From sequence record PQ571307: DNA of 64,000 nucleotides; one strand, given 5' to 3'. Source of the stretch: Shigella phage SF1-1. The notes beneath the pieces are model-generated. The model worked only from the letters and a program-made list of their open reading frames with translations. It was not told the origin of the DNA and ran no database searches. Position 1 is the first letter of the stretch. Every line of letters starts with the position of its first letter. Below are positions 25,145 through 27,887 of this stretch, one piece after another. The position numbers and the translations under genes are program-made.

Positions 25145-25707
25145 TGGGTTGTTTTAGCTTTTTGTGCAAAGAATCGGGCAAAGCTGCCCTTTCTACTTCT
25201 TTCGACGGATCACCTTGTTATCTCTTTCTTTTGAAGGACGGTGTTGTTATTGAAGAGATGTATGGCAACTATGATAGTTATGGTTGTGTTTTCTCTGGAA
25301 AAGAGGATGAAAACGGCGTTCGTGAACGGTTCGAATGGGCTATGGATTGGGGTAAGGTTTGTGATTTGATGCATTCCTCAAATCCAAGGGACGGTATCGC
25401 TATGGTGCTGGAAGAGTACTTTACAGGTGAAATCCCTACAGAACAATCTGACGGAGATCCTAACCAAGGTTGGGGTGATGGTGAAGAAGATCCAGATTGT
25501 TTTTTCAGCACAGAAAAGAATAAGTTTAAACGTGTTGACAACCCTTATCACAAAGTGCATAATACTCTCATTGAAACAGAAGATGACAAGATGGAAATTG
25601 AAGAAGATGATACTCTTGTAACACTTCCTATAAGTGAGTTACAAAAGATCACTAAGGAAGCTTACGACTTGGGCTTCAAAATTGGTAGAGGAGGTATGCG
25701 TGTTTAG
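25144..25707 (+). CDS. hypothetical acidic protein (187 aa)
   Basis: ORF in operon. Confidence 0.5.
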   Translation: MGCFSFLCKESGKAALSTSFDGSPCYLFLLKDGVVIEEMYGNYDSYGCVFSGKEDENGVRERFEWAMDWGKVCDLMHSSNPRDGIAMVLEEYFTGEIPTEQSDGDPNQGWGDGEEDPDCFFSTEKNKFKRVDNPYHKVHNTLIETEDDKMEIEEDDTLVTLPISELQKITKEAYDLGFKIGRGGMRV

Positions 25708-25978
25708 ATTCAATATTCAAGAAGAAAAAAGTCAGGATTTACCTATTGCTTTCGAAGATCTTGACGTAGGGGCCACATTCATGTATTATGATGCCTATGA
25801 AGACGCAGGGTTGGATACCTACCGTAACTTGGTGTTCATTAAAAATTCCACAAACAGTGCGATTTGTATTAATGGATCACTAGCACAACGAGGCTATACT
25901 CATTGCATCCCACCAGATACAAATATGGTGGAAGTAGATTTAGAAGTTACCAATATTACACTTAAGAAGGAGAAATAA
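25700..25978 (+). CDS. small protein, paralog A of duplicated cassette (precedes vWA gene)
   Basis: GTG start re-picked after GAGGAGG; VFRFNIQEEK...DLDVGATFMYYDAYEDAGLD aligns with MLNFEIDEQK...DLDVGDTFVYETAFDENGLD of the 27000 gene. Confidence 0.5.
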   Translation: MFRFNIQEEKSQDLPIAFEDLDVGATFMYYDAYEDAGLDTYRNLVFIKNSTNSAICINGSLAQRGYTHCIPPDTNMVEVDLEVTNITLKKEK

Positions 25979-25979
25979 T

Positions 25980-26774
25980 ATGTCCGAGAAAATCAGCCTG
26001 AAAAAACGTCAAGAAAACCTTGCTTTCTCTCTGAAAAAGAATAAGAACCTGAATGAAGGTAAAATTGTTCTTCGTGTAGCATGTGCTCTAGATATTTCTG
26101 GTAGTATGCATGGTCTATATTCTAGTGGGGTAGTGAGTGATTTTGTAGGTAAACTACTTCCTTTTGGTATGCTGTTCGACGATAATCAACAAATTGATAT
26201 GTGGGCCTTCAATACGAGTTCCCAAGAGCTTACTCCAGCAACAGCAGATGTTTACGATGACTATGTTGGTAAATGTATGCGTAATGTTCGTATCGGAGGT
26301 GGAACAAATTACGCCCCTGTAATGGCGGATATCTACGATGAGTATTTTGGCACTGTTACTAAATATATTACCACTAAACAAGTGGTACAAGAGGAGGCTC
26401 CAAAGAAAGGCTTCTTTAATCGTCTGCTTGGTAAAACTGAAACAGTGTCTGTAGAGCGTGAAAAAGTTGTAGCTGTATCTGAACCAGGTGCTGACGTTAC
26501 CCCTGGTGTTGTATTCTTCCAGACTGATGGTGAGAATGGTGATCCTAGTGCTGTTCGTCGTCTTATCGAAGAGAATAAGAATAAACCTATTTATTGGTTC
26601 ATGGTTGGCGTTGGTAATGAGAAGTTTGGCTTCCTGAAAGAACTGGCAAATGCTTATGATAATGTTGGTTTTATTGGCATTAAAGATTTAGACTTGACAG
26701 ATTCAGAGCTTTATGACAAACTCTTATCTGAAGAGTTCGGAGAGTGGGTTGTTAAAGTAGGTGCTAAAAAATGA
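25980..26774 (+). CDS. von Willebrand factor A (vWA) domain protein, TerY-like
   Basis: MIDAS motif DISGSM plus downstream Thr/Asp positions; N-terminus KISLKK resembles the TerD gene's N-terminus. Confidence 0.6.
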   Translation: MSEKISLKKRQENLAFSLKKNKNLNEGKIVLRVACALDISGSMHGLYSSGVVSDFVGKLLPFGMLFDDNQQIDMWAFNTSSQELTPATADVYDDYVGKCMRNVRIGGGTNYAPVMADIYDEYFGTVTKYITTKQVVQEEAPKKGFFNRLLGKTETVSVEREKVVAVSEPGADVTPGVVFFQTDGENGDPSAVRRLIEENKNKPIYWFMVGVGNEKFGFLKELANAYDNVGFIGIKDLDLTDSELYDKLLSEEFGEWVVKVGAKK

Positions 26775-27019
26775 TCGACGAGCTTGCCTCTCAAGTCATA
26801 GAAAATTATTGGCGCGAGAGAGAAGCTTTCATTATGCGCAGTCTCAAAGAGTATTTCATTGGGACTGTGCGAATGGAAGATATTGTAAGTAGAGTAGAGA
26901 TTCATGTATGGCCCGATTATGAAGAATGGGTTGACAAAGAAAATGAAAATGCTATAATTCTTCGTATATACAAACCGGAGATAACATTAGGAGGAAGAAG
27001 TGTTAAACTTCGAAATTGA
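26771..27019 (+). CDS. hypothetical protein (82 aa)
   Basis: ATGA overlap; contains an embedded consensus promoter. Confidence 0.45.
   Translation: MIDELASQVIENYWREREAFIMRSLKEYFIGTVRMEDIVSRVEIHVWPDYEEWVDKENENAIILRIYKPEITLGGRSVKLRN
26931..26958 (+). promoter_or_regulatory. near-consensus sigma70 promoter (TTGACA-16-TGcTATAAT) embedded in coding sequence
   Basis: TTGACA 26931-26936 and TATAAT 26953-26958 with TGn extended -10, upstream of the paralog-B/TerD cassette. Confidence 0.45.
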
Positions 27020-27269
27020 TGAGCAAAAAGTAAATAAACGATGCCTTACCATTAAAGATTTGGATGTAGGAGATACTTTCGTCTATGAAACTGCATTTGA
27101 CGAAAATGGTTTAGACCTTAGTGAAGTTATTGTTTATTTAAAAGTAGATGATGGGGAGAATGATTATTCTGCTGTAGAACTAAACCATCATGCACAATTA
27201 GTATCAATCCAAAACACATCTAAGCTTTTGGAAGTAGAATTGACTGTAACTGGTATTACACTTAAATAA
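27000..27269 (+). CDS. small protein, paralog B of duplicated cassette (precedes TerD gene)
   Basis: GTG start after AGGAGGAAG; paralogous to 25700..25978. Confidence 0.5.
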   Translation: MLNFEIDEQKVNKRCLTIKDLDVGDTFVYETAFDENGLDLSEVIVYLKVDDGENDYSAVELNHHAQLVSIQNTSKLLEVELTVTGITLK

Positions 27270-27284
27270 TAGAGGAGACAAAAG

Positions 27285-27887
27285 ATGACTGATAAAATTT
27301 CCCTGAAAAAAGGCTCTAGCGAAAAAATTTCCCTGAAGAAAGTTGCTCCGGCTCTGAAAGAACTTCGCCTGGAATTCTCTTGGAAATCTGATTCTAAACT
27401 GGACCTGGATGTAAGTGCACTGGTTTGTCGTCACAATGCCGCTGGCAATCCTGAAATGCTGTCTGCACGTCATCTGGTTTGCTATGCTAACAAGTTTGAT
27501 CCTGAACGTTCTACCTTCGCTGGTGATGATGTTCGTGATGGAACTGGCAGCATGGAGCAGATTGATATTACTCTGGCTAAAATCTCTCCTGATGCACAAG
27601 AGATTGCCTTTGTTCTGACCATTGATGATGATACAGGTCTGAAACGTTTTGGTCATGCTTCTGAAGGTATGCTTAAAATCTTCGACTCCGAGCGCAATGT
27701 GGAAATTCTGGATTTTGACTTCCTGGCTCCTGAAGTAGCTGGCAACACAATCTGCCACGTGGCTTCCTTGGTTCGTGAAGATGGGGAATGGAAGCTGAAA
27801 GCATATGGTGTAGGTAAAGCTGGTCTGGATATTTGTGATGTGGTGATGGCCTTCGGTGGTAAAAAAGAATGGTATGAATGTCCATAA
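27285..27887 (+). CDS. TerD-domain protein (tellurium-resistance TerD family)
   Basis: N-terminal ISLKKG/ISLKK strands, Ca-binding-like GDDVRDGTGSMEQIDI, IAFVLTIDD; 200 aa typical of the family. Confidence 0.7.
   Translation: MTDKISLKKGSSEKISLKKVAPALKELRLEFSWKSDSKLDLDVSALVCRHNAAGNPEMLSARHLVCYANKFDPERSTFAGDDVRDGTGSMEQIDITLAKISPDAQEIAFVLTIDDDTGLKRFGHASEGMLKIFDSERNVEILDFDFLAPEVAGNTICHVASLVREDGEWKLKAYGVGKAGLDICDVVMAFGGKKEWYECP
27291..27341 (+). repeat. in-frame tandem direct repeat (about 27-nt period) encoding DKISLKKGS/SEKISLKKV in the TerD N-terminus
   Basis: aaaatttccctgaaaaaa and aaaaatttccctgaagaaa about 27 nt apart. Confidence 0.6.

Follow-up and report, generated by a model that had tools for sequence, protein, structure and literature searches.

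Two paralogous small genes beside the vWA and TerD genes in the Ter module of Shigella phage SF1-1

A 64,000-nucleotide (nt) stretch of Shigella phage SF1-1 (sequence record PQ571307), here called the window, holds two short genes, small A and small B, whose products resemble each other. Small A lies directly upstream of a gene for a TerF-like protein with a vWA domain, and small B lies directly upstream of a gene for a TerD-domain protein. The question raised by this locus is whether a two-gene cassette was duplicated and the TerD body of one copy was then replaced by a vWA domain, as a preliminary description of the sequence proposed, or whether the small gene changed in number by itself beside a vWA and TerD pair that was already in place. 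Our overall conclusion is a modest one, namely that the small genes represent a lineage-specific, dynamically duplicated accessory family in a known kind of phage Ter module.

Two small genes and their protein family

The two small genes and the open reading frames (ORFs) next to them are given below, with protein lengths in amino acids (aa).

25144-25707, + strand: 187-aa ORF
25700-25978, + strand: small protein A, 92 aa, GTG start; PHROG 11278, subtype A2
25980-26774, + strand: vWA-TerF-like protein, 264 aa, YcbR-like; PF10138, E 1.6e-37
26771-27019, + strand: 82-aa ORF, phrog_22387, with no assigned function
27000-27269, + strand: small protein B, 89 aa, GTG start; PHROG 11278, subtype B
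27285-27887, + strand: TerD-domain protein, 200 aa; PF02342, E 3.2e-28

The coordinates and reading frames of both small ORFs were confirmed, and the start signals described for them could be read from the sequence, each gene having a GTG codon after a GGAGG motif and a 5-nt spacer. For small A, the motif lies at 25690-25694, the start at 25700 and the stop at 25978; for small B, the corresponding positions are 26990-26994, 27000 and 27269. The claim that the two proteins are paralogues also held in alignment. BLASTP gave 32/93 identities (34%, E 3e-14), and the Smith-Waterman score was 121 compared with 25.8 ± 4.5 for shuffled controls (z = 21), with none of 2000 shuffles reaching 121. Both proteins matched phrog_11278 over its full length, small A with an E value of 4.2e-51 (1-92 of 92) and small B with an E value of 4.2e-44 (1-89 of 92). 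GenBank records of near-identical phages carried the same two ORFs with the same starts, labelled as hypothetical proteins. From these sequence comparisons, small A and small B are diverged copies of one another, and they are very probably real phage genes, a view that we hold jointly with the rest of the evolutionary and anatomical account given below.

One orthologue of small B, in Escherichia phage EF1-1 (L001 6596-6865, XPO96356.1), is annotated as an RNA ligase. This label is probably an annotation error, because nothing in the analysis supports the name.

The 5' end of small A overlaps the 187-aa ORF by 8 nt, and its 3' end lies 1 nt before the vWA start. The Shine-Dalgarno sequence of the vWA gene is encoded by the KKEK tail of small A. 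Small B fills the slot between vWA and TerD, as the small gene does in distant relatives with a single copy. Several other relationships at the locus were considered and rejected, namely that the 82-aa ORF belongs to the small family as a third copy (hmmsearch E ~1), that the small proteins are fragments of TerD (hhalign probability 0.9% against a TerD alignment) or of vWA (0.1%), and that the upstream 187-aa ORF is what is left of a second vWA gene produced by duplication (0.3%).

Searching 1.84 billion representative proteins with a profile built from the two paralogues returned only ~12 clusters of 87-93-aa proteins, together with spurious short-motif matches in giant repetitive proteins, and a word-indexed homologue search with small B returned near-identical proteins only. 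By tblastn the family was found at 195 places, spread over 126 records that each come from a Stephanstirmvirinae-like phage. Judged by these searches, PHROG 11278 is a narrow, phage-only family confined to Stephanstirmvirinae-like phages. The family alignment kept its hydrophobic pattern down to 24-30% identity; residues F4, G24, T26, F27, G37, L38, A54 and N58 were invariant or nearly so, and D39 was present in 10 of the 12 sequences.

Pfam gave nothing above cutoff for the small proteins, the sole trace being a sub-threshold match to DUF5006, and a PDB sequence profile search with the family gave nothing meaningful. An AlphaFold model of the small protein (predicted local distance difference test, pLDDT, 87; predicted template modelling score 0.75) had a generic predicted fold, an SH3-like small beta-barrel. 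The likeness to SH3 is at the level of the generic fold only, because the structural scores were low. Stand-alone SH3-like proteins (FeoA, the C-terminal SH3 domain of DtxR/IdeR, HspQ/YccV and the KOW domain of EF-P) have no sequence similarity to the small proteins, and the predicted fold gives nothing specific on their function.

Copy number, gene order and the KISLKK start

The survey of related phage genomes that had been suggested for the cassette was carried out. It found one to three copies of the small gene per genome, with vWA and TerD already adjacent in genomes that have one copy. The arrangements were as follows.

L006-L009 and L014 (distant metagenomic relatives, 24-33% identity): one copy, vWA - small - TerD
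L013 (contig starts at the small gene, vWA outside the view): one copy, small - TerD
phi92 and Klebsiella phage 05F01: one copy, small - vWA - TerD
L019: upstream copy only, small - vWA - (82-aa homologue) - TerD
Window, phiWec179 and L010-L012: two copies
L020 (56-kb contig): three copies, A1 - A2 - vWA - o80 - B - TerD

The duplicated unit of a small gene plus a TerD-like partner was not borne out by these gene orders, in which single-copy relatives already hold vWA beside TerD and the small gene alone varies in number. L020 has two diverged small copies in tandem before vWA and a third before TerD. Because L020 has three copies and L019 only the upstream one, the small gene appears to have been gained and lost repeatedly, on its own. 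L020 is a metagenomic contig (SRR12532581_45690, small copies at 3728-5582) in which a strain-mixing assembly artefact is possible.

The small family was linked to vWA/TerD, with a small gene next to vWA, in each context examined (the window, phi92, phiWec179, 05F01, L006-L014, L019 and L020). Where a small gene abuts vWA, the spacing was a 1-nt gap, a 4-nt overlap or a 9-nt gap, and where it is adjacent to TerD, the distance was 11-35 nt. In a neighbour-joining tree, all copies from Stephanstirmvirinae grouped together (100% bootstrap) and apart from the single-copy outgroups, which occupy the slot before TerD. With L019 and L020 added, the tree had a B clade (87%) and an A clade (77%), the latter containing the subtypes A1 (100%), which is the phiWec179 type, and A2 (78%), which is the type of the window and phi92.

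These data are consistent with an ancestral state in which a single small gene stood between vWA and TerD. Within Stephanstirmvirinae, local duplication and loss would then have led to one to three copies per genome, with different lineages losing different copies, and the window phage would have retained an upstream A2-type copy and a B-type copy in the ancestral slot. This evolutionary and anatomical account of the small family, covering its paralogy, its place as a lineage-specific Ter accessory and its duplication and loss, is one in which we have good confidence.

The proposal that a cassette was duplicated, and that the TerD body was then replaced by vWA with KISLKK left as a remnant, appears very improbable, even though the observation behind it is sound. 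Both downstream proteins share the start (E/D)KISLKK, with MSEKISLKK in vWA and MTDKISLKK in TerD, so that an identical hexapeptide, KISLKK, opens both. Alignment of their first 25 residues, the comparison that had been suggested, gave z = 5.4, and 0/2000 shuffles reached the score. Each pair of a small gene and its downstream gene has its own sigma-70-like promoter upstream, the N-termini of vWA and TerD are matched within each genome (KISLKK/KISLKK, KVSLKK/KVSLKK and, in Neobacillus, IDLTKK/INLTKG), and similar motifs occur in the linker of bacterial TerD-vWA fusions, all of which would suit the proposal. However, vWA and TerD are adjacent in both of the single-copy arrangements (vWA-small-TerD in L006-L009 and L014, small-vWA-TerD in phi92 and 05F01), and the motif is also found where the small gene is absent. 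Positions L7, K9, L18 and K20 of the vWA protein ([IV]SLxK...SLKK) were at least 90% conserved over 33 vWA homologues, including bacterial ones at 29-40% identity. The Neobacillus vWA protein P0074 has the motif, and its locus (L018) reads TerD-vWA-TerC-PRTase with no small gene. Since bacterial vWA-TerF-like proteins keep this motif without a small gene nearby, the shared KISLKK is best read from the sequences as an old property of the vWA and TerD families and not as the scar of a local duplication.

The exchange of a TerD body for vWA likewise left no sign that we could find. There was no Pfam TerD match in the vWA protein or its N-terminal pieces, even at E values up to 10, so that the Pfam TerD model was blind to the N-terminal segment, and the beta1-beta2 hairpin of the TerD start was not predicted in that segment. 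The PF10138 model begins at residue 31 of the vWA protein and leaves the N-terminal motif segment outside it. In the AlphaFold model of the vWA protein (pLDDT 90.8), residues 7-20, which carry the ISLKK...SLKK motif, form a helix (pLDDT 81-94), whereas in TerD the motif aligns inside the solved fold (2KXT). The spacing between the two SLKK elements also differs (11 versus 10 residues), and no trace of duplication is visible at the DNA level, because the serine codons are different (AGC versus TCC). An ancient kinship of the N-terminal extension of vWA with the start of TerD, or a common constraint on both, is possible; such a kinship would lie outside the local history of this phage, and neither is tied to the duplication of the small gene. 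A C-terminal 'GEW' likeness of vWA and TerD in the MAFFT alignment was not significant (z = 2.0, reached by 102/2000 shuffles), and this segment is helical in the vWA prediction. The matched N-terminal flavour of vWA and TerD (window, L003-L018) hints at a shared constraint, over few independent lineages.

Possible roles of the small proteins

The vWA protein next to small A matched PF10138 with 130.1 bits (cutoff 29.4). Its metal-ion-dependent adhesion site (MIDAS; D-x-S-x-S, T, D) is intact in the window, with D38, S40, S42, T109 and D183. Over the 33 homologues, D38, S42, T109 and D183 were invariant and S40 was at least 90% conserved. The predicted model resembles integrin I-domains and the MIDAS domain of MDN1. 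MIDAS domains bind ligand domains, and a ~90-aa beta-rich domain with a conserved acidic loop would fit the ligand principle. The model also has a long two-stranded beta-arm insertion at residues ~125-169 (strands 125-141 and 153-169), with near-invariant G144, F145 and G151 at the turn; the arm varies in length and is missing in the shortest bacterial homologues.

Compared with the congeneric L010, the window proteins fell into a conserved and a divergent set. Identity was 90% for TelA and 90.5% for TerD, 73.5% for vWA, 61% for the 82-aa ORF, 55.6% for small A and 46% for small B. At the DNA level, identity dropped from 80-90% in the flanks to 47-72% over 25681-27255 and recovered at the start of TerD. 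The low-identity block is sharply bounded; it covers small A, vWA, the 82-aa ORF and small B, and is flanked by the 187-aa ORF and TerD. The interval 25681-27255 may, from its divergence, be a hot spot of recombination or diversification. Three signals before, in and after the block bear on how these genes could be expressed.

25535-25563, + strand: sigma-70-like promoter TTGACA-17-CATAAT (11/12), inside the 187-aa ORF, 137 nt upstream of small A
26931-26958, + strand: sigma-70 consensus promoter TTGACA-16-(TGn)TATAAT, inside the 82-aa ORF, ~40 nt upstream of small B
27906-27925, + strand: 8-bp G+C-rich hairpin closed by a GAAA loop, immediately 3' of TerD, where the transcription unit may end

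The promoter-like site at 25535-25563 is conserved in phi92 and L010. In phiWec179 (L004 ~3640-3670) it is kept as TTGACA-17-GATAAT though the 187-aa gene is deleted, and this retention suggests that promoter function, and not coding sequence alone, accounts for the conservation of the site. The site at 26931-26958 is the sole perfect TTGACA-N16-18-TATAAT in the 64-kb window, where 0.10 would be expected by chance, and it is conserved in phiWec179 and L010. Both this promoter and the Shine-Dalgarno sequence of small B sit in the 3' part of the 82-aa ORF. In L019, where small B is gone, the promoter is retained upstream of TerD as TTGACA-16-TATTAT, and for this reason we take it to be primarily the promoter of TerD. 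The hairpin at 27906-27925 has no T-run and was hence unflagged by the scan; right after it, before the endolysin gene, there is a promoter-like site, TTGCAA-17-TATACT (27906-27954 region).

The TerD gene is strongly biased to codons that are optimal in E. coli, with CTG for 16/19 leucines, CGT or CGC for 8/8 arginines and a GC content of 0.44, and by this measure its expression is likely to be very high. The small genes use CTG for 0/7 and 0/12 leucines (0/12 in small B), with a GC content at third codon positions down to 0.21 (small B). Their GTG starts and the absence of CTG, set against the codon-optimised TerD gene, point to low levels of the small proteins relative to TerD.

Given the tight linkage of the small family to the vWA/TerD pair in sequence, a dedicated accessory role is plausible. 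The small proteins would be made at a low level, as their GTG starts and non-optimal codons imply, and would serve the vWA protein as accessory partners or as regulators. The small domain might dock on the intact vWA MIDAS through its conserved acidic helix-G-L-D loop, which includes D39 in small A, or it might be an assembly factor, and in either case the small proteins would modulate the assembly of a sub-membrane complex of TelA, vWA and TerD. This mechanism is drawn from synteny, and we offer it tentatively, as one possibility for the function. As a best explanation of the whole locus, history and vWA-partner mechanism together, it is the account towards which we lean.

Several observations weigh against a partnership with vWA. 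The vWA-TerF-like protein was found in 209 phage records, but the small family in only 126; it was missing from 77 of the 209 and from the bacterial Ter loci examined. From these absences, the small family is not needed for basic vWA/TerD function. The same slots in other phages hold an unrelated 110-116-aa protein or nothing. The unrelated family stands before vWA in L015 (3653-3985) and between vWA and TerD in L016 (4744-5094), its two members sharing 27% identity (E 5e-10), in phages that share the TelA...vWA-TerD-endolysin module, and both slots around vWA are empty in L017. The synteny with vWA could be plain vertical inheritance, because local duplicates naturally land nearby. Part of the low-identity block is hidden paralogy, since small A of the window is of the A2 type and small A of phiWec179 and L010 is of the A1 type; divergence within 25681-27255 also extends to the vWA gene and to the B copies, beyond the sorting of A1 and A2. 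Finally, otherwise full-length phage contigs carry truncated or deleted variants of the small genes: a truncated small B in P0002, a truncated small A in P0093 and, in P0009, a 55-aa protein in which the start of the 187-aa ORF is joined in frame to the C-terminus of small A. The existence of such natural variants indicates that the small genes are dispensable for propagation. The vWA gene itself is split in phage KKP 3954, and P0052 is listed among the natural disrupted variants.

One alternative is that the small genes are functionally independent of Ter, as fast-evolving filler ORFs of the sort typical of large myoviruses, for instance with a host-takeover or anti-defence role, placed where they are by inheritance and local duplication. 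We consider this unlikely. The family is indeed narrow and fast-evolving, varies in copy number, includes disrupted variants, gives way to an unrelated family or to nothing in the same slots and has no match in Pfam or PADLOC. On the other side stands its association with vWA, which held throughout the contexts examined, at identities as low as 24-33% and in either of two slots. The tight spacing or overlap of the small genes with vWA suggests translational coupling, and the 110-116-aa family alternates between the same two slots around vWA, which hints at a conserved 'partner slot'. In this alternation, the 110-116-aa family mirrors PHROG 11278.

A second alternative is that the small proteins partner or regulate TerD, through its Ca2+-bound state or its oligomerisation, with copy A as a redundant or diverging spare. 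This appears rather improbable, although the ancestral slot lies directly upstream of TerD (L006-L009, L013, L014) and small B and TerD share the perfect consensus promoter in the window. In phi92, 05F01 and L019, the sole copy is before vWA, a whole vWA gene away from TerD, and, of the two, vWA is always the closer neighbour of the small gene. Loss of small B has left the promoter in place before TerD. Relative to L010, TerD is 90% conserved while the small proteins are at 46-56%, with vWA at 73.5%. The contrast in codon use, optimised in TerD and not in the small genes, speaks against a 1:1 complex of a small protein with TerD.

In a more specific form of the vWA-partner account, proteins of PHROG 11278 would serve the vWA MIDAS as interchangeable subunits, either ligands or regulators, and this would give a common cause to their birth and death and to the sharply bounded, hyper-divergent block between TelA and TerD, each 90% conserved. 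We regard this form as speculative and rather doubtful. If it were true, the pair of vWA and small protein would be the specificity-determining, arms-race interface of the phage Ter system and may decide which superinfecting phages or host factors are recognised, and the 110-116-aa family would be an analogous, non-homologous subunit. For the vWA-partner account in general, a small protein linked to vWA would offer a handle with which to pull down the Ter complex and would point to the MIDAS as a possible site of specificity.

The Ter module and comparison with known systems

The window phage is a member of Phapecoctavirus, a phAPEC8-like genus of Stephanstirmvirinae. Over 23400-28000, the window was 98-99% identical to >60 phages of Escherichia in that genus, and its remoter matches were phi92-like Justusliebigvirus. 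Besides the genes already given, the following features were found in and around the module.

18649-19476, + strand: PRTase_3, upstream Ter component
19424-19963, + strand: Macro domain protein, upstream Ter component
20279-21253, + strand: TerC, upstream Ter component
22879-23469, + strand: SprT-like
23466-24578, + strand: TelA-like protein, upstream member of the Ter module; PF05816, E 3.2e-33
Between TelA and the 187-aa ORF, + strand: three tiny ORFs
27987-28508, + strand: SleB-like endolysin

Every gene in the stretch 22879-28508 is on the + strand, and PRTase_3, TerC, TelA, vWA-TerF-like and TerD all lie on that strand within 18649-27887. The ORFs that were scanned included neither a TerB nor a TerZ. 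By its gene content, the window phage carries a near-complete Ter system, beyond TelA and TerD alone. A HAD-like match at 17979-18656 was weak and under the Pfam cutoff. The TerD ORF (27285-27887) scored 98.9 bits in Pfam against a cutoff of 25.3, over residues 5-179, and matched PDB 2KXT with an E value of 1.5e-15 in an alignment starting at chain residue 3. Searches of PADLOC-DB, including TerY-P, at E <= 0.01 gave no match for the small proteins, vWA, TerD, TelA, the 82-aa ORF or the 187-aa ORF.

Records labelled 'Campylobacter phage' with C. jejuni as host (MG065650.1, MG065639.1 and MG065689.1) also matched this region. 'Campylobacter phage' B15 had 98.7% DNA identity to it, and A150 and A110a carry the phi92-type small-protein gene. 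The host labels of these records look doubtful.

To our knowledge, the mechanism of Ter systems (TerD, TelA, TerC, TerF-type vWA) has gone unsolved for decades, both in bacteria and in the phages that carry them. The framework for Ter systems is reportedly that of Anantharaman et al. 2012. Our analysis corrects the reading of the locus as a duplicated cassette with a domain swap and defines an accessory family and its copy-number dynamics. It also places likely promoters before the vWA unit and the TerD unit in a phage genus that has found therapeutic and biocontrol uses.

Phage-borne Ter sets with TelA, TerC, TerD, TerF-type vWA and PRTases have been described in jumbo and related phages (Iyer et al. 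2021, PMC7824862), and a Ter system is also present in Klebsiella phage phiKp34 (PMC8386662). The phage Ter complex has been proposed to act against superinfecting phages or stress (PMC7824862). The window has the same component set as these published systems, within ~10 kb and on one strand. It differs in its small candidate partner, predicted to be SH3-like, which goes unmentioned in PMC7824862 and PMC8386662.

Two further likenesses concern the vWA protein. TerF-type proteins, which have a TerD domain and a C-terminal vWA domain (PF10138), share the PF10138 family with the window protein, and in the TerF-type bacterial fusions P0080 and P0083 the linker that leads to the vWA domain has SLxK-type motifs. 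In contrast to these fusions, vWA and TerD are separate proteins in the window, and its vWA protein has no detectable TerD domain and an N-terminal motif that is predicted to be helical. The MDN1 MIDAS domain with the ubiquitin-like domain of NLE1 (PDB 8QL1), and integrin I-domains with their ligands, match the fold of the vWA model, which keeps the full MIDAS set. This likeness is an analogy only, and the small protein is predicted to be SH3-like and not ubiquitin-like.

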